Notes under the pieces: model-generated | What the model was told of the DNA's origin: nothing | Seen by the model: only the letters and a program-made list of their open reading frames with translations | Databases searched by the model: none | Shown: piece by piece, positions 6,001 through 55,713 of the stretch | Layout of the letters: every line of letters begins with the position of its first letter | Position numbering within the stretch: the first letter of the stretch is position 1 | Assembly (NCBI GenBank): GCA_038065075.1 | Contig: JBBTRQ010000001.1 | Span: forward strand, 2,823 to 66,822 | DNA length: 64,000 nt | Origin: Patescibacteria group bacterium | GTDB lineage: Bacteria > Patescibacteriota > Patescibacteriia > UBA9934 > GWF2-40-263 | Direction: 5' to 3' | Translations under genes and position numbers: made by a program

Positions 6001-8961
6001 CGTCATGTTGAACTCGGCCTCCACCGCGGCGTTCACGCATACGTCCTGCGGATCGCTCCACCCCTCCCAGGGGCTGGGTGAGACACCCGTTCCCGTGCAC
6101 TGGACGAGCACGTGCGGGGTGTTGGGTGTGATTCCCGTGGTGATCATGAAGGCGTAGTGGGCCTCAACCTCAGTCACGTCCTCACATGACGTCGAACACG
6201 CTCCGTTGGAACAACAGCTCTCTCCTTCGGCACACAAATCCGCATCCTCCCGACAGTCGCCGACGGTAAAGGTGATCGAATTGGAGGAGTATCCGTTTTC
6301 CGCTTCCTCAACGTACACAGGACCGGTCACGGCCTCGTCGGGCACGACAACGGAAGAAATCTCGTCATTCTCCCACAACGTGAAGCCGGCTTCTTGAATA
6401 CGATAAAACGTCACGGTTCCGTCGTCGGTTCCAAAATTTTCACCGTAAATTGTCACCTCAACTTCCGCCGGCGCGCTCGATGGATCAATGTCACAGATGG
6501 CCGGTCCCGGGGTGTCGTCCAAAACGACGAAATCTGTCGCGTCCGATTCCTGCCCGTCCGCGCGCTCAAGCGTGAGCGCGTGGGTTACGGCTTCGATCGC
6601 GTCCAAGCTTTCTGTTTGATAGACCTCCGGAACCTTCACGGTTACGTACGTGTCATGCCAGAAATCGTCCCCACACGCGTCCGGAAAATCGGTGTCGCCC
6701 AGGGCGGTATAGCCCAAGGACTCATTCTCAAAAAAGATTGATCCGGTTGTCGTTCCAAATCCTGTTCCGTACACGGTGATGTATTGTCCAGCTGGCCCCC
6801 AGTTCAGCGCGTCCTCACACGTCGCTCCCTCGCCACAGTCATCGTCATCGCCACAGTGCACATTGTCGTCGGAACACGCCTTCCAACCGGAATCGACCGA
6901 GGAGATGACTGGACTCGAGGAACTCGAAACATCGACTGCCGTGAACGTGACCTTATTTGATCCCACACGCACAGACTCGCAACTTCCGCCCTCGTCGCCA
7001 CAATCATCGTCGTCGCCGCAATACTTGAGCGTCTCGGAACACCACGACGTCGCGCAACTCTCACCTGTCTCGGTGTCACAATCCTCATCGTCTGAGCAGG
7101 TCGTCGCCGTTGCCTCGCCATCGGAGGTGATACAAACGTAGTCGCCTGTAAACACCTGCGTAAGATACGTTCCCGAGTTTACGTTGGGAACAACGACATC
7201 GAGTTGGTCGTCAGACCAAGAAATGTACGAGCTCGCTTCGTAGTTTGTAAAATAGAACGTCGACGAACCTTGGGTCTCGCCGAAACTGTTGCCGTACACA
7301 TCGATCGAAGAGCCGTAATCATCTTCATCAGGGTCAAGCAAACACACGCCCGGACGTTCAATCGCGTTGACATCGAAGTCTGCAATCGACGGGCCATAGT
7401 CGTCGTCGGTGCGCTCGGTCTCGTCGTCCGATGTTGTGACAGAAACAGGGCCATCCACGGCGGCGCTTGGAACCTGAACAATGATCTGCGAATCCGACCA
7501 CTGCGTGGAAGCGTTACATTCGTACGCACTCAGTTCAACTTCATCTCCCGATTCCGTTCCTAGGAACGCAATAACACCTTCGTCTTCTCCAAAGCCCTCA
7601 CCGGAAATCGTGATCAGATTTCCCCCAGCGCCGTCTCCTGGCGACACGCCTTCAATCTTCGGAGTCGTCACGCAGGAACCGTCCACACATTGGCCGCTGG
7701 CGCACTCCGCGTCTTCCGTACACTCATCGCCGTCACAGGAGCCGCAGTAGTACGCGCTCGTGGAGTCGCCACCGCAGTCGATTTCCTCCTCACCCAAATC
7801 TTCGTCGAGGACTTCGTTGTTACAGTTGGCGGCACGCAAAACGATGCTTACGCGGGAGGCGGTATCCGTATTCCCCGCGCAATCGTATCCGGTCGCCCAC
7901 ACGTCATATTCCTCGTTGGTGGTGTAGCCTTCCGTATCCCATTCTTCTGCCGAGTCGGTGAAAAATGCATTCTCGACGCTCGCGCCTGTCACGGCTCCCG
8001 TGGATGAGAAGTCTACTCCCGAGGAGTAGATCGCCTCGTCATCATCGATCACATAAAAATCGACGGTCGAAACACCACTGTCATCTGTCGTAAGTACCTG
8101 AAGCATTTCGATCGATCCCGCGTAGAGACTCTCCCCGTCTTCTGGCGCGTCCATCGTGACGCTTGGATCGTCGATATCGACCTCGGTCCCGGTTGTGAAA
8201 CCAAAGGTGCAGGGATAGGTCGTCGTGCACGTCAGGGATGAGCCGGCTGAGGACTCGACCACGCTCGAATCTACATCAATCGTGTACTCCGACGACGCAT
8301 CGAAACAAAACTCTGTCTCGTACGGGCTGTCACAGGCCTGGGATGGTGTGAATGTCACGGTGCGGCCGGACGTCGAAAACGTTCCGACCACGGGACTGCC
8401 ACCAGAGTCGGCAACCACGATTCCCTCCTCCACGCTGTCAGAATCGACACTCTTGGAAAAAACAAATTGAAGCTGGAGGTTTTGGAGAGACTCGGCACAT
8501 TCTGTATTGACTGAGCTCAGATAAAACACCGAACTGCTACTGCTATCCGAGTAGGAACTCGAGTTTGAACTGCTTCCAGAAATATCCGTCCCGGTCGCGT
8601 CCACGAGCGCCCCCAGCACAAACGACACAATGGCGAAGCTCGCAAACACCAACAGCAGACCGATGATGGCGTTTGTGATGATACCCTTGGCTTTCTTCAA
8701 CCGCTCTGGATTCCCTCCGGCGGTCATGTACACAAATCCTCCGTAAACCATGAACGCAACAGTCACGACTCCCACGAACGTAATGGCCGTGCGGATGAGT
8801 CGGGCAATAATGACCGTGATGGTGGCGTCGGTCGAAAACCCGGCCGTTTCCGCAAACGACTCCATGTCCACATCCTGTGCAAACGCCGGCACGGCGACAA
8901 AAACCCCGGCACTGAGGATCAGTGCAAGTAGGAAGCTGTGGATGTAACGATTCATCTTCAT
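1..8961 (-). CDS. giant secreted/cell-surface protein, 5' end complete and 3' end beyond window start (>=2987 aa in window); N-terminal signal peptide plus TrbC/VirB2-like (T4SS pilin-like) two-helix module, then Cys/Asp/Gly-rich adhesin-like region with myxo-type cysteine-rich repeats (CGDG..GEDCDDGN..SGDGCS..C), IPT/TIG-like repeats (xYGxxFG) and Ser/Thr-rich linkers
   Basis: Manual translation of the minus strand from ATG at 8959-8961 gives MKMNRYIHSFLLALILSAGVFVAVPAFAQD... Frame checked stop-free at several sampled places down to nt 1 (no TTA/CTA/TCA in + triplets starting at 3k+1). It is absent from the ORF track because it has no in-window stop. All other-frame ORFs in 1-8900 are short and are interpreted as spurious high-GC antisense/out-of-frame ORFs. 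Confidence 0.6.
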   Translation of the reverse strand, partial: MKMNRYIHSFLLALILSAGVFVAVPAFAQDVDMESFAETAGFSTDATITVIIARLIRTAITFVGVVTVAFMVYGGFVYMTAGGNPERLKKAKGIITNAIIGLLLVFASFAIVSFVLGALVDATGTDISGSSSNSSSYSDSSSSSVFYLSSVNTECAESLQNLQLQFVFSKSVDSDSVEEGIVVADSGGSPVVGTFSTSGRTVTFTPSQACDSPYETEFCFDASSEYTIDVDSSVVESSAGSSLTCTTTYPCTFGFTTGTEVDIDDPSVTMDAPEDGESLYAGSIEMLQVLTTDDSGVSTVDFYVIDDDEAIYSSGVDFSSTGAVTGASVENAFFTDSAEEWDTEGYTTNEEYDVWATGYDCAGNTDTASRVSIVLRAANCNNEVLDEDLGEEEIDCGGDSTSAYYCGSCDGDECTEDAECASGQCVDGSCVTTPKIEGVSPGDGAGGNLITISGEGFGEDEGVIAFLGTESGDEVELSAYECNASTQWSDSQIIVQVPSAAVDGPVSVTTSDDETERTDDDYGPSIADFDVNAIERPGVCLLDPDEDDYGSSIDVYGNSFGETQGSSTFYFTNYEASSYISWSDDQLDVVVPNVNSGTYLTQVFTGDYVCITSDGEATATTCSDDEDCDTETGESCATSWCSETLKYCGDDDDCGDEGGSCESVRVGSNKVTFTAVDVSSSSSPVISSVDSGWKACSDDNVHCGDDDDCGEGATCEDALNWGPAGQYITVYGTGFGTTTGSIFFENESLGYTALGDTDFPDACGDDFWHDTYVTVKVPEVYQTESLDAIEAVTHALTLERADGQESDATDFVVLDDTPGPAICDIDPSSAPAEVEVTIYGENFGTDDGTVTFYRIQEAGFTLWENDEISSVVVPDEAVTGPVYVEEAENGYSSNSITFTVGDCREDADLCAEGESCCSNGACSTSCEDVTEVEAHYAFMITTGITPNTPHVLVQCTGTGVSPSPWEGWSDPQDVCVNAAVEAEFNMTMVKPTMNASTVLVRACAQTFTLAEETSALEVCSFAAAECSSDFDCENPDETCLLAQEGACKNWVLVPGSVVPDVTGFSWTPIVGSLATDTWYRVSLQGADQIRSAAGGYLEEDYEWDFTTSAVNTPCEVGDVNVRPNEYTQTQQADVDYSAQLTAQNDRCVALSCAGYALDWESDFDGALIPVSAPGIGICANVVNAQAETPANDPALITATVTNAVNDPSGTGDLTINFLDPKIDDYFPRCTAACVNALPWGEFNTVMDEATIGENSITLYECLNSLCETSGLDDVDLVSAIGYSATTRRFSILFAPPLTMDPNTWYRVVVDGDAVVSQTGIALAQSGSNYGTDENRYFPGDFSWIFRTKNDAVSCSIDSVEIDPALATLGYVGARAEFAATALGEPDECSAQGQTLQAGDYAWEAWTATDTPNAVGAAASLALNNDEVVAYMILGGAIELAGTLPAYCTAACLNAGSTVSVEDGVCGNGSVEAPEECDDGATLPGDGCSQNCLNEGVFEEHAQCPLACEESDAPCVNDASCEEVCAEAVCASAADVNQACALDSECDSGACSTSGQCEDFADADEACGSFTQCDSLSCVGSCSITGDSCNGQDSDCTYAVGDTCELTGIGCCGDGIRQWTIETGGEDCDDGNLASGDGCSSICKNEGSLLVGATCGDAGPRDWASNTGGEDCDDGNAISGDGCSNRCLLEGSESEENVYAICGNQVVEPGEDCDPIPTALASSTLVAPDGCSSSCLWEGTPSCPTSASPNCCGNTDLDLGEECDGEEGCGNRCLWSGSSYLYSIPSFCGDGNAQGVGEECDAPASSVFSAGSYSVAQVAPGAPREVNETTGYAVSTISVTVDEDVTDDATLRLQCACTTNDSCGGAALGCGAESCCFARPTLGTVSPTDNLAAFETDTANGLCRNTAVWVEFSEFMDAATFDSTQDNDQDGVVELTDGDGIIQQNEFHANLYLDLVSVDGNGDGAQEAVDEITDCPTGYVGAALPPESSSAMRLWHWFKRFVMGLFGNDASASSTFACHVPVTYSQTIVDAQAGTARVALAYGQLLEENAVYRLVVVADNVGHDENKDGMLTPSDVTLCLGDACGSAQFVRTFAVGSEVCDLDRVTLEDLGNVDVSVNEGASVGLFSATGEEHAFIATPQSYRAGGYEEIAPLPELYAWEWGWASSLTDAGETDVVASAPETPQDTTRNYTASGASGREQVFATATITTDELFEPTTVAVAAIPATATSAAIPAIAARTVTGLLEVTALVCENPWPSLESTTLDFPYLEDVLPSNFSFYYCRDAGETGTEDDLPALEDPIDVTSLASSGILQELIFKVEDSSDAIGVRVIPNVSFCSTTTSTSCSADSDCPSGESCLGNGSYLTPSAWVEGQEFTGTFSETELDGYPAVSAGNTLYAAAANVSGTTIYPNIYIVSYNEDASDDAQEIFNQLLANWRFNGNTDEVTDINLCQDETTLSYELYYESDDDTSGEYVTCEWDGDCYEAFEDSSIMCDAQKGKLTRDMTRLLDVVDIATTIDEYGDANGHCSVTKGQSCDTDYNCPGEEECMAGFPEVQSGTFVPALSNSIWSSWSASLGNDLGTALPSDPVNEFYDCSEDGYDSASCWNGEEGSFICPENSHLYGYQSVGGEAYKLYAVLESDGGEYTWGYALDTELSDEVTVYVEYPTDYAPASALSGFSATPVFCDGSTWGDSSLCGDGTQGASETCELGDTTTGATCTVCVNPDDDTYDGDEGCESDAQCGTGGTCASGTTTYACAINSSNQCYWDTTNTSSCSAYECGNGVVETGETCDDGSLNGTYGHCDDECGAGDAIYCGDGYLASSEQCDCGTTSNYSSVIADTASWAYLNLAAECAVSNGQYNATDACAYNCTSPGLICGDGRVNGSEECDGDYEDWEGALCSDGTICTTDADCDTGTCGGGGAACGVGDICTDFDDAGETCIVDTQCDAYFVTPSYGSGACNASGVCASASDASDVCTSSTSCDSGLCGDFN

Positions 8962-13456: not shown

Positions 13457-13466
13457 ATGTTTCTTG

Positions 13467-13524
13467 GTAGCCCCAGGCTTTAGCCTGGGTGCAGCCGCAG
13501 CCCAGGCTAAAGCCTGGGACTACC
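13467..13524. repeat. palindromic repeat family 2, two inverted copies (GGTAGCC-CCAGGC-TTTA-GCCTGG-GTGCAGC / mirror) in the lepB-hisS spacer, 11 nt upstream of the hisS start
   Basis: Perfect nested hairpins seen in sequence. Confidence 0.65.
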
Positions 13525-24283: not shown

Positions 24284-25978
24284 ATGGTCGAGAAGCCACG
24301 CGTCAATTTACTCAAACGGCATCACACCCCGCGAGCGACGAAACGATCGCCCGCGCTTTTTTTTGGTCGCCGGTTGTTTATCACGTTAGCGGTGTTAGCG
24401 GCGGTCGGCATCATCTTCTCCTCTCAAGTAAGCTCGACCTCCGAAAGCTCCGGCTCCTTCCCTGACTTTTCTCTTTTCTCAGCCATCAAGCATCTTGTAT
24501 CTTCGGGAGACCGGGACCTTGAAGGTGAGGAAGAAGACCGCGTGAATTTCCTTCTCCTGGGCATCGGAGGTGAGGGACACGACGGTCCGCAACTGACTGA
24601 CACCATTATCTTTACGAGTTTTCGTCCTTCCGACGGCGCGGTCGCGATGATGTCGCTCCCCCGCGACATGACGGTTCCCATCCCTAATTATGGGTATCGC
24701 AAAGTGAACCATGCCAATGCCTACGGCGAGATGGACAATCCGGGTTCGGGGCCTGAACTCGCCTCGCAAGTCATCGGGGACGTCTTGGACGAAGAGATCA
24801 ACTATTACCTCCGCATAGACTTTAAGGGCTTTGAAGAATTTGTGGACGCCATCGGCGGCGTGGATGTGTACATCGAAAACGGATTCACCGATTCAAACTA
24901 TCCGATTGAAGGAAAAGAATACGACGAGTGCGGTGACGAACCGTCCGAAACATCCGACCTCTTGGTCGAATCTGACCCAGAAACGACAGAGGTAGCCGCA
25001 GGCTTTAGCCTGCGCGAGTCGCAGGAAGAACCCACCGAGCTCGCGCAGATTCTCGCGATCGACGAAGAGGAAGAAATCCTCGAAGAAGCCCTCGATGAAG
25101 AAAATCTCCCCGAGGTAGTGCCGGACTATTCCTGCCGCTTTGAGTCCATCACCTTTTATGAGGGCTGGACGCACATGGATGGAAGAACCGCGCTCAAGTT
25201 CGCCCGCTCACGACATGGGAACAGCGGTGATGGCTCGGACTTTGCTCGCAGTAAGCGCCAACAAAAAATCATCCTCGCCGTAAAAGACAAAGTGCTGTCG
25301 GCCTCGACCTTTTTGAACCCCTCACGCATCTCCAAGATGATGGACACGCTGAAAGCCAACATCTCGACCAACCTGGACGTGTGGGAGATTGTTCGACTGG
25401 CGGGTGAGTTCAAAAACGTGAGCGCTTCGGAAATCACCAACCATGTCATCGACGCGTCCGACGCTTCCCCGTTGTACGCGACGGTTCTCAACGGCGCGTA
25501 TGTGCTCCTCCCCAAGAACGACGATTGGGAACCGATTCAAAACATCGCTGAACATATTTTCACGCCGGACTCAGAACTCAACACCCAGTTTGCTGATGCC
25601 CCTGAACAGAAACCGAAATTCGTGAAAGTAGAAATCCAAAACGGCACAAACATCACGGGACTGGCGTTCACCACCTCGCAACTGTTGGACGGCCAGGGAT
25701 TTGACGTGGTGAAGGTCGGCAACGCCGTGAGCCGCGACTATGCCCATACGGTCATCTACGATCTCACCAACGGCCAGCGCTCAGATGAACTCAAGGCCTT
25801 GCGTGACTACCTGCAGGCGGACGTGACCTTGTCGGCAACCGGTTGGATGCTTTCCGGCGACGTCGTGCCACAGGAAATTGCATTCTCTTCGGACGATTAC
25901 GAACGATTAGCCACCCAAGAAAACATTGACTTTTTGGTCATTCTGGGAGAGTCTGCGAGCGGCCTGGCACGATACTAA
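24284..25978 (+). CDS. LytR-CpsA-Psr (LCP) family cell-wall polymer ligase with an acidic insertion and a C-terminal LytR_C domain
   Basis: N-terminal TM; LCP motifs (DTIIFTS.., MSLPRDM, YLRIDF.GF, ..KFARSRH.., RQQ); insert aa about 205-275 is Glu/Asp-rich and contains a repeat family 2 copy. Confidence 0.85.
   Translation: MVEKPRVNLLKRHHTPRATKRSPALFFGRRLFITLAVLAAVGIIFSSQVSSTSESSGSFPDFSLFSAIKHLVSSGDRDLEGEEEDRVNFLLLGIGGEGHDGPQLTDTIIFTSFRPSDGAVAMMSLPRDMTVPIPNYGYRKVNHANAYGEMDNPGSGPELASQVIGDVLDEEINYYLRIDFKGFEEFVDAIGGVDVYIENGFTDSNYPIEGKEYDECGDEPSETSDLLVESDPETTEVAAGFSLRESQEEPTELAQILAIDEEEEILEEALDEENLPEVVPDYSCRFESITFYEGWTHMDGRTALKFARSRHGNSGDGSDFARSKRQQKIILAVKDKVLSASTFLNPSRISKMMDTLKANISTNLDVWEIVRLAGEFKNVSASEITNHVIDASDASPLYATVLNGAYVLLPKNDDWEPIQNIAEHIFTPDSELNTQFADAPEQKPKFVKVEIQNGTNITGLAFTTSQLLDGQGFDVVKVGNAVSRDYAHTVIYDLTNGQRSDELKALRDYLQADVTLSATGWMLSGDVVPQEIAFSSDDYERLATQENIDFLVILGESASGLARY
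24991..25018. repeat. palindromic repeat family 2 copy (GGTAGCC-GCAGGC-TTTA-GCCTGC-GCGAG) in-frame inside the LCP gene (encodes ..EVAAGFSLRE..)
   Basis: Sequence identity of architecture with 8967-8994 and 13467-13524. Confidence 0.6.
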
Positions 25979-29629: not shown

Positions 29630-31969
29630 ATGGAAGCCATGTCGCACCATCTACTCATCGTCGAGTCACCGACGAAGGCAAAAACCATTTCAAAATACCT
29701 CGGGCAGGACTACAAAGTCCTTTCCTCTTTTGGTCACATCCGCGATCTGCCCAAGAGCAAACTTGGCGTGGATTTGGAGAACCATTTCGCCCCCACGTAC
29801 ACGATTCCCACCAAGAGCAAGAAAGCCGTGACAGAACTCAAAGCCGCGGCAAAGAACGCGGACATGATCTACCTAGCGACGGACGAAGACCGTGAAGGAG
29901 AGGCGATCGCCTGGCACATTCAGGAGGCGCTCAAGCTCAAACCAGAAAACACCCGCCGCATTACGTTTCATGAAATTACCCGCGCGGCCGTTGAGGACGC
30001 TGTGGCACACCCACGCGACATCGACCAGAATCTGGTGAACGCCCAGCAGGCGCGCCGCATTCTGGATCGTTTGGTCGGCTATGAGCTCTCTCCGTTCCTG
30101 TGGCAAAAAATCCGCTATGGTCTCTCGGCGGGACGTGTGCAGTCAGTCGCCATGCGGCTCATTGTCGAGCGCGAACGCGAGCGCCGGGCGTTCAACATCG
30201 AGGAGTACTGGACCGTCGACGCCGAATTCGAAAAATCCAACGTGACCTTCCCTGCGAAGCTTATTGAGGCTGACGGGAAAAAAGTCGACAAGCTCGAAAT
30301 CAAGACACAGGGCGATGCGAAGAGGCTCGTCGAAAAACTCGAGGGTGCTCCAGCAACGGTCATGGCCGTCGAGAAAAAGCTCGTGAAGAAAGCGCCGCCG
30401 ACACCGCTCACCACGTCGACCCTCCAGATCGACGGCAACACCAAATTGGGATTCAGTTCCAAACAAACGATGCGACTCGCGCAGGAGCTCTACGAAACCG
30501 GCCGCATCACCTACATGCGTACCGACTCGATGAACCTGGCGGAGAAATTCCTCGACGAAGCGCAGGCCTACATTCGCACGACCTTCGGCGAAAAGTATGC
30601 CGAAGGCGCACGACGATTCAAGACAAACAAAAAAGGCGCGCAGGAGGCGCACGAAGCGATCCGCCCAACAGAGGTCACGGCGACTCCGGATTCGTTGCGC
30701 TCCACCCTGGAGCCACGCGCCTGGAAACTCTACAATCTCATCTGGAGCCGCACCGTCGCCTCCCAGCTCCCAAGCGCGCAACTCAACCGCACCACGGTGG
30801 ACATTGAGGTCTCCCCCCCTGCCCGAGGGGGGGCTAGGGGGGGTGGGAGGGAGGTTGCTGTATTCCGTGCATCCGGCTCCTCGGTCGCGTTCCCGGGCTT
30901 CATGAAAGTCTACCAGTCGGCGAAAGAAAAAATTCTTCCCGAGCTCGCCAAGGGAGACACCGTCGATACCAAATCAATCATCCCCAACCAACATTTTACT
31001 GAGCCACCCGCACGCTATTCAGACGCAACTCTGGTCAAAGCCCTCGAGGAATTCGGCATCGGTCGCCCATCCACCTACGCCCCGACAATCTCCACGATCA
31101 TCGATCGCGGCTATGTGGAGCGTGACGAGAACAAGAAACTCGCGCCCACGGACATCGCTCTTATTGTCAACGACGTCCTGGTGAACCACTTCCCGCAGAT
31201 CGTCGGCTATGAGTTCACCGCGACGATGGAGAATACGCTCGATGAGATCGCGGAAGGAAAAGTCGAATGGGTTCCGACGCTGGAGGCATTCTACGGCCCG
31301 TTCCATCAAAATTTGGAAGCCAAGACAAAGGAACTCGATCGAGCCGACATCATGCCCGACCGAGTGCTGGGCACGGATCCAGAGAGCGGACTCCCCATCA
31401 CTCTCAAAACGGGTCGCTTCGGCGGATTCGTCCAGGTGGGTGAGTACACAAAGGAGGACAAAAAAGCCGGCAAACCAAAACCTAAGAGCGCCTCACTCCT
31501 CAAAGGCATGAACGTCGAGTCCGTGACGCTTGAGCAGGCCCTCGCCTGTCTCTCCCTTCCCCGCGACGTCGGCGTCAGCGAGAACGGCGAAAAAATCGTC
31601 GCGGCCGTCGGACGGTTTGGTCCGTATGTGAAAGTCGGCGACGTGTACGCGAGCATCAAGGAGCCACTGGATCCCCTGACCATCGATGAGGCAACGGCGC
31701 GAACACTTCTGAAGGAATCTGCCGAGCTCAAAAAGAAAATGGCCACACCCATTGCCGAATTCGGCAATGATCCGGTGAGCGGCGGAGCGATCCTGCTCAA
31801 ACATGGCCGCTTCGGTCCCTACCTCACCGACGGAACCACAAATGCGTCGCTTGGGAAGAAACGCGACCCGGCCGAAGTCACTCGCGAATCTGCCATCGAG
31901 ATCCTGGGAAAAAAACGGGCGATGGAAGCAAAGAACGGAAAGTCAAAATTCAGATCCAAGAAAAAGTAA
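29630..31969 (+). CDS. topA: DNA topoisomerase I with an in-frame Gly/Arg/Pro-rich insertion (SPPARGGARGGGR) derived from a palindromic repeat
   Basis: TOPRIM (SPTKAKTISKYLG), active-site region (TYMRTDS), C-terminal Zn-ribbon-like/GFG repeats. Confidence 0.9.
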   Translation: MEAMSHHLLIVESPTKAKTISKYLGQDYKVLSSFGHIRDLPKSKLGVDLENHFAPTYTIPTKSKKAVTELKAAAKNADMIYLATDEDREGEAIAWHIQEALKLKPENTRRITFHEITRAAVEDAVAHPRDIDQNLVNAQQARRILDRLVGYELSPFLWQKIRYGLSAGRVQSVAMRLIVERERERRAFNIEEYWTVDAEFEKSNVTFPAKLIEADGKKVDKLEIKTQGDAKRLVEKLEGAPATVMAVEKKLVKKAPPTPLTTSTLQIDGNTKLGFSSKQTMRLAQELYETGRITYMRTDSMNLAEKFLDEAQAYIRTTFGEKYAEGARRFKTNKKGAQEAHEAIRPTEVTATPDSLRSTLEPRAWKLYNLIWSRTVASQLPSAQLNRTTVDIEVSPPARGGARGGGREVAVFRASGSSVAFPGFMKVYQSAKEKILPELAKGDTVDTKSIIPNQHFTEPPARYSDATLVKALEEFGIGRPSTYAPTISTIIDRGYVERDENKKLAPTDIALIVNDVLVNHFPQIVGYEFTATMENTLDEIAEGKVEWVPTLEAFYGPFHQNLEAKTKELDRADIMPDRVLGTDPESGLPITLKTGRFGGFVQVGEYTKEDKKAGKPKPKSASLLKGMNVESVTLEQALACLSLPRDVGVSENGEKIVAAVGRFGPYVKVGDVYASIKEPLDPLTIDEATARTLLKESAELKKKMATPIAEFGNDPVSGGAILLKHGRFGPYLTDGTTNASLGKKRDPAEVTRESAIEILGKKRAMEAKNGKSKFRSKKK
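30811..30850. repeat. C7-N7-G7-CTA-G7 palindromic element inserted in-frame in topA
   Basis: ctccccccctgcccgagggggggctagggggggtgggaggg; near-identical architecture to 46659-46692 in asnS. Confidence 0.6.
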
Positions 31970-37677: not shown

Positions 37678-37764
37678 GCCGCGGTGGCGGAATTGGTAGA
37701 CGCGCAGGACTCAAAATCCTGTATGGGCAACCATGTGAGGGTTCGATTCCCTCCCGCGGCACCA
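37678..37764 (+). tRNA. tRNA-Leu (anticodon CAA), class II long variable arm
   Basis: GCCGCGGTGGCGGAATTGGTAGACGCGCAGGACTCAAAATCCTG..GAGGGTTCGATTCCCTCCCGCGGCACCA. Confidence 0.85.
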
Positions 37765-37901: not shown

Positions 37902-37978
37902 GGCTGGGTAGCTCAGTTGGTTAGAGCGTGGGACTCATAAGCCCGAGGTCGTGGGTTCAACTCCCACCCCAGCTACCA
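37902..37978 (+). tRNA. tRNA-Met elongator type (anticodon CAT; could be a lysidine-modified tRNA-Ile2)
   Basis: GGCTGGGTAGCTCAGTTGGTTAGAGC...CTCATAA...GGTTCAACTCCCACCCCAGCTACCA; G1-C72 paired. Confidence 0.8.
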
Positions 37979-38015: not shown

Positions 38016-38351
38016 TGCGGGGACCGGATTTGAACCGGTGACCTCTTGGTTATGCTTACCACTACAGTTTTCACTGCCTCTGAATTTCATCAGAGTTTGT
38101 AGTCTGGACTTTCCCTTGTCCGTCTTCATTGTGAAGGACGGACCCTACCATCAAGTCTCTACACTTTCCTCTCTTATGTAAGAAAGGCTTAGCTCGGGAT
38201 TACCACCATAGGAGGCTTCCCCGAATTTGATAGGATTCATCCGACCGTTTCTGGTCGGACAGCCCATTGCGATATCAGATGCCATCTACGTTGGTTTCGT
38301 TGCATCCGATCGAATCGAGCCAAGCGAGCTGCCAGGCTGCTCTACCCCGCG
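38012..38351 (-). tRNA. initiator tRNA-fMet (CAT) interrupted in the anticodon loop (after U33) by a 263-nt intron; exons 38318-38351 (34 nt) and 38012-38054 (43 nt incl. CCA)
   Basis: Exons concatenate to CGCGGGGTAGAGCAGCCTGGCAGCTCGCTTGGCT|CATAACCAAGAGGTCACCGGTTCAAATCCGGTCCCCGCAACCA, near-identical to E. coli tRNA-fMet; C1:A72 mismatch and A11:U24 initiator identity elements. Confidence 0.75.
38055..38317 (-). ncRNA. group I-like self-splicing intron (no ORF) within tRNA-fMet
   Basis: 5' exon ends in U, intron ends in G; P/Q/R-like elements (AAATTCGGGGAAGCC, AATCCCGAGC, GTCCAGACTACAAAC); P9-like hairpin ACTACAAACTCTGATGAAATTCAGAGG..CTGTAGTGG. Confidence 0.6.
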
Positions 38352-45894: not shown

Positions 45895-47259
45895 TTACGG
45901 AGTAATCCGATTAATCATCCTCGGGAACGGAATCGTCTCGCGCACGTGGTGCAATCCGCAGGTCCAGGCGACGATGCGCTCGAGTCCATAGCCGAAGCCG
46001 GAATGTGGAACCGAGCCGTAGCGGCGCAGGTCGAGGTACCAGTCAAAAGGTTTTGGATCGAGATTGTGTTCCGCAATGCGCTTCATAAGGGTCTCGTAGT
46101 CGTCCTCGCGCTGTGAGCCGCCGATGATCTCACCGTAGCCCTCTGGCGCGAGCAAATCGTTATTGAGTACGCGTGTGGGATCAGCTGGATCGCGCTTCAT
46201 GTAGAACGCCTTCACGGCCGCCGGATATTTCTCGACGAAGATCGGTGTCTCGTACTGCTGCGTGAGCCAGGTCTCGTCGTCGGCGCCCAAGTCGTCCATG
46301 TCCCCAATGTCACTTCCGTTGGCACGCAATTTCGCAATCGCCTCGGCGTGCGTGAGATGGACAAATGGCGCTTGGACTTTTTTGAGCGGCTCAACGTCGC
46401 GCTCCAGAACCTTCAGTTCGTACGCACAGTGCTCGAGAACGTCCGCGACGATGCGGCAGATGAGCGCCTCTTGAATCGCCATATTTCCTTCGTGCTCCAC
46501 AAACGCCGCTTCCGCGTCCATCATCCAGAACTCCGTGAGGTGACGACGTGTCTTAGATTTCTCCGCTCGGAACACCGGTCCAAAATCAAACGCTCGACCC
46601 AGACTCATGATCCCCGCCTCCAGATACAGCTGCCCTGACTGCGCGAGGTACGCCTTTCGGCCCCCCTCCTTTTCAAGGAGGGGCTGGGGGTGGTTATCAT
46701 CATCGACGAAGTAATCCATCTCAAACAGCTCGGTCGTGCCCTCACATGAGGTCGGTGTCAAAATCGGTGTGTCGAATTTTACAAATCCGTTTTCGTGGAA
46801 CCACTCGTAGGTGCTGGTGATAATTCGATCGCGGACACGCATCACCGCCCACTGGCTCTCGGCGCGCAACCAGAGGTGACGATTGTCGAGTAAGAAATCT
46901 GGGCCGTGCTCTTTCTTGCCCAATGGGTAATCTTCTTTTGGAATCTGGATCGGCTGAAAAAACGTGCCGGTCAGTTCAAACCCAGACGGTGAACGAGGCT
47001 CGGCTTTCACCACACCGCGCACCGTGACGGACGATTCAAGTTTCAATAAGTCCAATTGGTCCCATTGGTCCGATGGAATCTCGCTCTTGGAGAAAACCAC
47101 CTGCACGCGTCCACTCCCGTCGCGGAACTGTAAAAAGAAAATTTTTCCGCTGGAGCGGAAGTTGTAGCACCAGCCTTTAAGCTCGATCTCTTGACCGACG
47201 TGCTGACTGATTTCAGAAATCATTTTGTTGTGCATAGATTGCTTCGCTGTCGCTCGCAA
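45895..47259 (-). CDS. asnS: asparagine--tRNA ligase (class IIb) with an in-frame repeat-derived insertion (..DDDNHPQPLLEKEGG..)
   Basis: OB-fold N-terminus, KAYLAQSGQLYLE, RHLTEFWMMDAE, FPR C-terminus; the Asn versus Asp call rests on the SGQL/EFWM motifs. Confidence 0.75.
   Translation of the reverse strand: MRATAKQSMHNKMISEISQHVGQEIELKGWCYNFRSSGKIFFLQFRDGSGRVQVVFSKSEIPSDQWDQLDLLKLESSVTVRGVVKAEPRSPSGFELTGTFFQPIQIPKEDYPLGKKEHGPDFLLDNRHLWLRAESQWAVMRVRDRIITSTYEWFHENGFVKFDTPILTPTSCEGTTELFEMDYFVDDDNHPQPLLEKEGGRKAYLAQSGQLYLEAGIMSLGRAFDFGPVFRAEKSKTRRHLTEFWMMDAEAAFVEHEGNMAIQEALICRIVADVLEHCAYELKVLERDVEPLKKVQAPFVHLTHAEAIAKLRANGSDIGDMDDLGADDETWLTQQYETPIFVEKYPAAVKAFYMKRDPADPTRVLNNDLLAPEGYGEIIGGSQREDDYETLMKRIAEHNLDPKPFDWYLDLRRYGSVPHSGFGYGLERIVAWTCGLHHVRETIPFPRMINRITP
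46659..46692. repeat. C-run/N7/G-run/CTG/G5 palindromic element inserted in-frame in asnS
   Basis: ggcccccctccttttcaaggaggggctgggggtgg. Confidence 0.6.
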
Positions 47260-55673: not shown

Positions 55674-55713
55674 CAAACAAACATCCCCCTCGTGTGAGGG
55701 GGATGTTTGTTTG
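55674..55713. repeat. palindromic repeat family 1 copy with a 16-bp perfect stem (caaacaaacaTCCCCCtcgtgtgaGGGGGAtgtttgtttg)
   Basis: Seen in sequence. Confidence 0.6.

Follow-up and report, generated by a model that had tools for sequence, protein, structure and literature searches.

The stretch of patescibacterial DNA analysed here (64,000 nucleotides of contig JBBTRQ010000001.1, hereafter the window) carries two essential genes whose open reading frames (ORFs) each contain a short, GC-rich palindromic insert: asnS, encoding asparaginyl-tRNA synthetase (AsnRS; minus strand, 45895-47259, 454 codons), and topA, encoding DNA topoisomerase I (plus strand, 29630-31969; domains PF01751, PF01131 and PF13368). 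Both inserts sit at the tip of a beta-hairpin, at positions where orthologous proteins have tight turns. Below we describe the two inserts and their relatives in other genomes and metagenomes, and we propose that the asnS insert is probably a translated, diverged in-frame copy of a dispersed DNA element of ~36-40 nucleotides (nt), similar in kind to repetitive extragenic palindromic (REP) sequences, another copy of which resides in topA.

Identification of the asnS gene follows from comparison with the AsnRS of T. thermophilus (5zg8), to which ORF 45895-47259 matches with E=2e-143 and residues 13-454 aligned; an anticodon-binding domain of the oligonucleotide/oligosaccharide-binding (OB) type, a class II core and similarity over the full length place the product among the class IIb AsnRS, and the corresponding domain pair PF01336 and PF00152 was found in every homolog. 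The product has its closest homologs in Candidatus Uhrbacteria (Patescibacteria). A database protein 100% identical to the product (P0001, 446 residues) begins eight codons downstream at an ATG, and this codon, at 47235, is probably the true start in preference to the TTG at 47259 at which the ORF was mechanically opened.

The alignment with 5zg8 leaves a clean 14-residue gap opposite VDDDNHPQPLLEKE, between the segments FEMDYF and GGRKAYLAQSG of the window AsnRS, and the P. horikoshii enzyme (1x54) shows a gap of ~12 residues at the same position, which lies 25-40 residues upstream of motif 2 (FRAEKSKTRRHLTEFW). A preliminary description made from the DNA sequence had proposed an in-frame insertion at just this point, between FEMDYF and the next conserved segment and ahead of motif 2, and the structural alignment confirms it. 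From 120 aligned orthologs and an AlphaFold2 (AF2) model, the expanded beta-turn loop comprises codons V185-R201 (VDDDNHPQPLLEKEGGR; 46657-46707, minus strand). In the model (mean predicted local distance difference test, pLDDT, 73.5) the insert appears as coil with pLDDT <50 between the short strands MDYF and RKAY, in keeping with the surface loop anticipated by that description and with a predicted position upstream of motif 2, at a beta-hairpin tip.

The basal form of this turn in the 120 orthologs is three residues long, D-L-G. Distant AsnRS sequences and those of most Patescibacteria have a three-residue turn, and the insert is not conserved among the former. Among loci from species-representative genomes, which include few close relatives, have basal loops only and served as the outgroup, the turn outside one Uhrbacteria subclade always comprises two to four residues; within that subclade it bears inserts of 4-33 residues belonging to several recurrent but mutually unrelated types. 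The type found in the window, DD[DN][NH]HPQPLLEKEG[GR], also occurs in P0034 and P0043, which are 74-75% identical to the window AsnRS, and is missing from relatives at 85-92% identity, which have other inserts or almost none. In a tree built without the loop, the window AsnRS and P0034/P0043 group far apart. At the nucleotide level the insert core is identical at 33/34 positions between the window and L001, the whole genes being 71% identical. As a separate feature of asnS loci, three extra tRNA-synt_2 (PF00152) genes lie downstream of asnS on an Uhrbacteria contig (L087, 11409-17868), and one such gene in L002, L088 and L090; such a local expansion of class IIb synthetase paralogs as in L087 is unusual.

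Of the 14 extra AsnRS residues, eleven (HPQPLLEKEGG) derive from a C-run/G-run hairpin at 46660-46695. The palindrome reported in the preliminary description at 46659-46692 is indeed present, and its end lies one base further on, the plus strand of 46659-46693 reading ggCCCCCCTCCttttcaaGGAGGGGctgGGGGtgg. Read on the minus strand, the element copy (46660-46695) is AACCACCCCCAGCCCCTCCTTGAAAAGGAGGGGGGC, encoding N-HPQPLLEKEGG, and has the form of a diverged member of the C-run/YTAG/hairpin family defined below. Its arms, CCCCTCC at 46663-46669 and GGAGGGG at 46677-46683, enclose a loop at 46670-46676; the window has a single instance of the arrangement CCCCTCC-N7-GGAGGGG, which none of 100 dinucleotide shuffles reproduced, and in the mRNA the stem lengthens to 9 bp (-16.2 kcal/mol; z=-1.0 against shuffles). 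Relative to the canonical C7/G7 stem, C:G has given way to T:A at two mutually pairing positions, which to judge from the paired arms is a compensatory change. The codon at 46684-46686 is CAG (Gln) where the family has a conserved TAG, which here would be an in-frame stop; the asnS genes of L001 and L002 have CAA at that place.

The copy in topA is canonical. It lies antisense to the gene at 30812-30848 (minus strand, TCCCACCCCCCCTAGCCCCCCCTCGGGCAGGGGGGGA), is recognised by the family profile with E=1e-8, and matches both the probe and the consensus given below; the plus strand of the same interval, TCCCCCCCTGCCCGAGGGGGGGCTAGGGGGGGTGG, encodes SPPARGGARGGG. In the ortholog alignment the protein has a loop insertion, SPPARGGARGGGREVAV (30812-30862, plus strand), in place of a four-residue beta-turn, and solved TopA structures (6ozw) show a 13-residue gap at that turn. 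Most topA orthologs, including the four nearest at 88-89% identity, have the four-residue turn without an insert; the topA of L089 offers an empty site, and a few orthologs carry related inserts, SPLSKGGLRGVAV and SPLPKGGLGGVAV together with a version of 33 residues. In the gene encoding P0146 (L086, 11160-11290) outer element ends, TCCCCCCTGCCCG and AGGGGGGTGGGAG, enclose ~70 nt of further palindromes, among them CCCGCCCGAACGACCGTTCGACGGTCGGGCGGG; the 33-residue protein insert is thus the product of a nested insertion into the hairpin loop. When the window was searched for the layout "C-run, loop, G-run, CTR, G-run", only the asnS and topA sites emerged as strong matches, compared with a mean of 0.72 in mononucleotide shuffles.

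A sister lineage connects the two inserts. In the asnS of L087 (protein P0004), a canonical element copy reading ACCCACCCTAGCCCCCCCTTGGGAAGTGGGGGA occupies the same site as the insert of the window; in a search of 1.4 Mb with this insert, the best non-self match was the topA insert of the window (33 nt, 88%, ungapped, E=3e-5, opposite orientation), followed by the topA insert of L085. The claim that one element had entered a second essential gene, made without sight of the L087 sequence, is thus upheld from a source independent of it. The DNA found in the two genes is the same although its orientation and reading frame differ; it is therefore the DNA that is conserved and not the peptide.

To inventory the family we searched metagenomes with a 21-nt degenerate probe taken from the core common to the copies (CCYTAGYCCCCCCTYGGRMAG), which retrieved 32 loci representing 27 distinct copies. 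Outside the bases specified by the probe, CCCC stands directly upstream in 22/27 copies and at least five G residues stand directly downstream in 22/27. The family consensus is (CCCACCCC)CCCTAG-CCCCCCCT-[TGGGAA/CGGGCA/TGGAAA]-GGGGGGGA, ~36-40 nt in length, in which two C-runs split by a YTAG tag are followed by a short loop and by a single G-run able to pair with either C-run. All 27 copies have CTAG or TTAG as the tag, a form that the probe itself demanded, and the asnS copy has CCAG.

Family members are scattered: they occur in unrelated genes, in either orientation and in several frames, as well as in clusters between genes. Besides topA and asnS, its hosts encode SMC, UvrD, glycosyltransferases of family 4 (GT4), SufBD, a SpoIID-like protein, Wzy_C membrane proteins and an M48 peptidase, and a heparinase-like protein contains three copies; Pfam domains span the copies in SMC, UvrD, GT4, SufBD, Wzy_C, M48, topA and asnS. 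Within ORFs of at least 200 codons, 10 copies run in the orientation of the gene and 12 in the opposite one, and every intragenic copy is in-frame and open. When UvrD is aligned with PcrA, a 23-residue gap falls exactly at the element copy of UvrD. The remaining copies are intergenic, with clusters of alternating orientation in L108 (six matches at 1763-2097), L100, L104 and L109, and a cluster also in L125. Host contigs range in GC content from 35 to 70%. No copy was present in the viral contigs searched, no Rfam family matched the asnS or topA site, and our literature searches returned nothing on the element motif, on DUF559 (see below) with repeats, or on REPs in Patescibacteria. One further match, in L092, was set aside as probably due to chance; it lies in a eukaryote-like protein with an RNA recognition motif (RRM) and is without the G-run. 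Two other sequences in the window bear some resemblance to the element. The compact sequence CCACCCCTCCCAGGGGCTGGGTG at 6058-6080 (C-run, CA, GGGG, CTGGG), missed by the family profile, might represent a remnant of the element that is decayed or has no loop; and a perfect 18-bp inverted repeat at 55674-55713 (CAAACAAACATCCCCCTC/GAGGGGGATGTTTGTTTG, 4-nt loop), whose inner CCCCCTC/GAGGGGG resembles the element stem, is probably a terminator.

Assignment of the diverged asnS copy to this family draws on an ungapped scan with its 33-mer, on an intermediate in L097 and on positional homology with the canonical copy of L087. Over 1.7 Mb, the scan returned only family members at >=24/33, canonical copies matching at 24-27/33. 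The best match outside asnS, at L097:325 (AACCACCCCTAGCCCCTCCTTAAAAAGGAGGGGGAC, 30/33), is intergenic, just upstream of a gene start, and keeps the TAG; the CCCCTCC/GGAGGGG sub-variant is therefore itself dispersed. That TAG has become CAG or CAA exactly in the frame where a stop would result, and has been kept in the intergenic copy of L097, argues that the element in asnS is translated rather than bypassed or spliced out. Statistics on the avoidance of TAG by reading frame were not counted as evidence because they are circular, ORFs being unable to hold in-frame stops.

A candidate partner for the element was found in a gene that it brackets. In L109 an ORF with a DUF559 domain (domain of unknown function 559) lies between inverted element copies, and a tblastn search with this ORF against all DNA collected found homologs in exactly two more loci, L010 and L100, each again between element copies; Pfam assigns the flanked ORFs to DUF559 (PF04480) with E=1e-31 and 1e-36. 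The pair flanking the L010 gene was among the terminator-like hairpins that were all that a first profile, built from five copies, retrieved elsewhere. As a prospective test we chose L125, whose homolog (P0249) has no element-type tail, and found inverted copies on both sides, TCCCCCCC-TTACGAA-GGGGGGG-CA-GGGGGGGG upstream (~60 nt) and CCCCCCCC-AA-CCCCC-TTTTCTTAA-GGGGGGG downstream (~55 nt), with more copies nearby. All four DUF559 loci examined (L109, L100, L010 and L125) thus show the order [hairpin-G-run] gene [C-run-hairpin], with the exception of L010, which has a different hairpin sequence in the inverse arrangement. Among 120 database homologs of DUF559 (P0241-P0360), the C-terminal tail runs into element-type peptide in 12; many are known solely from contigs of 0.5-2 kb, which is what multi-copy genes with assembly-breaking flanking repeats would be expected to give, and some are annotated as Planctomycetes, so that the pairing of element and DUF559 is not confined to Patescibacteria. 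Tandem arrays of half-elements with a period of ~33 nt (for example GCTGCATACCCTTCGAAGGGGGGAAGTGATCGG, four times) also adjoin DUF559 genes, at 2776-2890 of L125 and at 480-560 and 960-1130 of L100, the latter within long ORFs in which they read as PPLGRGE-type repeats.

At its centre, GGGCTAGGG, the element includes CTAGG, and Vsr endonuclease nicks CTAGG-type sites at T:G mismatches; we know of no DUF559 activity on such repeats. The association between gene and repeat is what we observe, and we offer only tentatively the suggestion that a DUF559 protein, as a Vsr-like endonuclease of the PD-(D/E)XK fold, might mobilise and propagate the family, in the role that RAYT transposases (see below) play for classical REPs. 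Somewhat more speculative is the wider notion that a DUF559 gene with its inverted copies might constitute an autonomous, REPtron-like unit; this would be a second class of nuclease, distinct in mechanism, that generates and spreads REP-type mini-palindromes across phyla (Patescibacteria and probably Planctomycetes) and seeds in-frame loop inserts in essential genes.

Several known repeats resemble the element in part. REPs are 20-40 bp long and GTAG- or CGTC-tagged, form inverted dimers, and flank genes for REP-associated tyrosine transposases (RAYTs) in units termed REPtrons; their intragenic, in-frame copies are enriched in replication and repair genes, and the short members of the Rickettsia palindromic elements (RPEs) are included with them (Di Nocera et al. 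2013, PMC3733652), RPEs being discussed also in PMC1779305. Like REPs and the hairpin-forming REP doublets (REPINs), the present element is a GC-rich imperfect palindrome of 20-40 nt (consensus 36-40 nt, stem 7-9 bp) following an xTAG tag; it occurs as singles, inverted doublets and clusters, is in part intragenic and in-frame, and encloses a nuclease gene between inverted copies in the manner of a REPtron. Unlike them, it has CTAG or TTAG in place of GTAG at the end of the palindrome, a C7/G7 homopolymer stem with an extra upstream C-run, a low density with all window copies intragenic, and a bracketed gene that specifies DUF559, of the PD-(D/E)XK fold, and not an HUH tyrosine transposase; its hosts, moreover, include Patescibacteria. 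Among RPEs, which are known only from Rickettsia, RPE-1 measures 100-150 bp, and RPE-4 and RPE-6 are short with a CGTC tag. Ogata and colleagues reportedly described RPEs in 2000 as selfish palindromes inserted in-frame in essential genes of a reduced genome, surface-exposed when translated and compatible with protein function. The element shares with them in-frame insertion at positions compatible with the protein fold (the turn tips of AsnRS and TopA, the gap in UvrD) and differs in its length of 36-40 nt, its YTAG tag, its hosts in Patescibacteria and other phyla, and its unrelated sequence family. It is filed neither as a GTAG REP nor as an RPE.

Other comparisons are looser. The small dispersed repeats (SDRs) of cyanobacteria, which Elhai and colleagues are said to have described in 2008, measure tens of bases, have hairpin potential, show nested insertions and occur occasionally in genes; the element agrees with them in size, hairpin potential, nesting and the presence of some intragenic copies, and differs in sequence and in hosts. 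To our knowledge no nuclease partner of SDRs has been described. Short GC-rich palindromic mobile inserts in protein-coding genes are also known from mitochondria, as GC-cluster or double-hairpin elements and as the "byp" inserts of Magnusiomyces, the latter being skipped by the ribosome and under no need to be in-frame; unlike such bypass inserts, including that of T4 gene 60, the copies described here are in-frame and open and have no character of untranslated inserts. Nor does the element have the terminal inverted repeats and target-site duplication of a MITE (miniature transposable element with inverted repeats), being a single hairpin without terminal inverted repeats around its core. 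The phenomenon is of a known kind; what appears new is the family, together with its tag, the hosts and the possible DUF559 partner.

In weighing other origins for the asnS insert, we considered whether the site is an ordinary hypervariable surface loop, in which local slippage or palindrome-making template switching produced an insert whose likeness to that of topA is a coincidence of composition. The loop is hypervariable, its inserts of 4-33 residues including several unrelated types and some, such as [LM]GKGxPExV, that are not palindromic; C- and G-runs, furthermore, pair in any arrangement, and folding z-scores are weak. Yet the same 36-40 nt, down to CCCAC and YTAG, recur in 27 distinct contexts in unrelated genes, a dispersal that largely refutes an origin in place, and the 33-mer scan that yields only family members includes a 30/33 intergenic match in another genome; a purely local origin is accordingly very improbable. 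An artefact of sequencing or assembly (poly-G/poly-C reads, chimeras) deserves next to no credence: homopolymer runs of C or G are error-prone on some platforms, but the insert is in-frame without a stop, and sequence variants of it turn up at that site in independent ENA (Hainich groundwater), NCBI and Logan assemblies and in JGI metagenomes. A single origin followed by spread between Uhrbacteria lineages in a short exchanged segment of asnS, by homologous recombination or gene conversion, would account for near-identical inserts in genes 74-75% identical, and the derived CAR codon and T:A pair held in common do suggest a common origin. Between the window and L001, however, four-fold synonymous sites agree at 5/6 positions in the insert, against 10/32 for the 40 flanking codons to either side and 58/114 over the remaining gene, so that the flanks are no more alike than the remainder and show no co-conversion. 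With the flanking synonymous sites saturated, there is therefore no recombination patch beyond the element, and we hold this route to be improbable. Two possibilities would then account for the common insert, namely independent insertions of near-identical copies, or constraint at the nucleotide level on an old insertion. Of the earlier suggestion that the repeat is mobile or recombinogenic rather than fortuitous, the mobile half is supported by 27 distinct copies in unrelated genes and intergenic clusters, and the recombinogenic half finds no support in the saturated flanks.

A classical REP or REPIN, mobilised by a RAYT (an IS200/IS605-type tyrosine transposase) encoded elsewhere in the genome, has a stronger claim than these and is still unlikely in our estimation. 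The size, the layout of tag plus hairpin, the alternating clusters and the presence of copies within genes for replication and repair match the published account (PMC3733652), and the window itself contains, at 13466-13524, a true GTAG doublet belonging to a different family; against this, the tag is CTAG or TTAG, the bracketed genes are DUF559, and no Y1_Tnp (RAYT) domain occurs in ~150 kb of related loci outside the window, to judge from their precomputed Pfam annotations. It might also be supposed that the insert has a selected function, whether as a hairpin in mRNA or DNA (a translational pause, mRNA stability, a protein-binding site) or as a Pro/Gly-rich peptide serving AsnRS or TopA. The compensatory C:G to T:A changes preserve the stem, two C to T changes in L002 leave G:U pairs in the mRNA-sense strand, and nucleotide conservation is greater in the insert than in the flanking codons; but occurrence in either orientation, in several frames and in unrelated genes means that no single peptide or RNA strand is conserved, the closest relatives lack the element in both asnS and topA, and Rfam gives no match. 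A selected role of this sort seems to us rather improbable, about on a par with the exchanged segment.

Our preferred reading, that of a dispersed element retained and translated in asnS, would run as follows. Element copies would be inserted as DNA at more or less any position; with the genome compact, selection would then retain only those copies that are in-frame, free of stops and located in loops able to tolerate 10-20 extra Pro/Gly-rich residues, and the element would have no function for AsnRS. Selection for tolerant loops would account for the repeated occupation of the same turns, and for the presence there of more than one family of palindromes. At the asnS turn, the DNA of the insert type AEGEA[EP]LRQ (L123, 574-645; L124, 8823-8894) is a double hairpin of 72 nt unrelated to the element, made up of CCGAGC-CAA-GCTCGG and GGCGAAGC-TCC-GCTTCGCC. 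Two distant lineages differ in its first hairpin by a compensatory change of C:G to T:A. The DNA of the [LM]GKGxPExV type is not palindromic, so not every insert here is an element. Most simply, insertions would land at many places and survive only in tolerant loops; alternatively, existing hairpins may be targeted, as the nested case of L086 suggests.

A number of observations weigh against this reading and temper our confidence in it. The asnS copy is only marginal in a profile built from the 27 copies (E=0.18), albeit the best match among sequences outside that profile. The stability of the hairpins is unexceptional (z from -0.4 to -2.3 against shuffles), and such scores do not discriminate because C- and G-runs pair in any order. 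Copies are sparse, with two in 64 kb, both intragenic, and the family profile found none in ~100 kb flanking the orthologous loci. Comparison of empty with filled sites showed neither a target-site duplication nor a clean boundary, and in topA the residues of the original turn are replaced rather than split. Direct signs that the element still moves, for example a presence/absence polymorphism in a single population, were not seen. A tblastn search of the window found no DUF559 gene; the DUF559 link is a correlation in four loci, at least some of which are probably from other phyla, and repeats could simply accumulate around a selfish gene.

The window also contains further palindromes. At 13466-13524, between the start of hisS and the end of a signal-peptidase gene, lies a GTAG-tagged inverted doublet of a different family, GGTAG-CCCAGGC-TTTA-GCCTGGG ... 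CCCAGGC-TAAA-GCCTGGG-ACTACC. Its hairpin, CCAGGCTWWAGCCTGG, recurs as a doublet just upstream of asnS in L087, L106 and L110, and is found in L097, L107, L115 (once inside a UvrD gene) and L117. A similar hairpin, CGCAGGC-TTTA-GCCTGCG, is in-frame at 24997-25014 in a gene of LytR_cpsA_psr type (24284-25978, plus strand), where it encodes AAGFSLR in an acidic linker. Elsewhere, an Rfam group I intron match at 38078-38281 (minus strand; 56 bits, above the gathering score) adjoins tRNA-Leu(CAA) at 37678-37764 and tRNA-Met at 37902-37978; ARAGORN detected no minus-strand tRNA at the intron match.

Patescibacteria have genomes of ~1 Mb and almost no intergenic space, so that a selfish repeat would persist in them only where proteins tolerate extra residues. 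The copies in asnS, topA and the genes for SMC, UvrD and other core proteins indicate that selfish mini-elements can colonise essential genes in genomes nearly without spare DNA. The family would in effect map loops tolerant of insertion, and may explain part of the odd, lineage-specific insertions seen in the proteins of Patescibacteria. In practical terms, the element may serve as a marker and should be recognised as a source of artefacts in annotation and alignment and of breaks in assemblies. Should the link with DUF559 prove causal, it would reveal a new class of enzyme behind REP-like repeats and provide a role for a widespread domain of unknown function.

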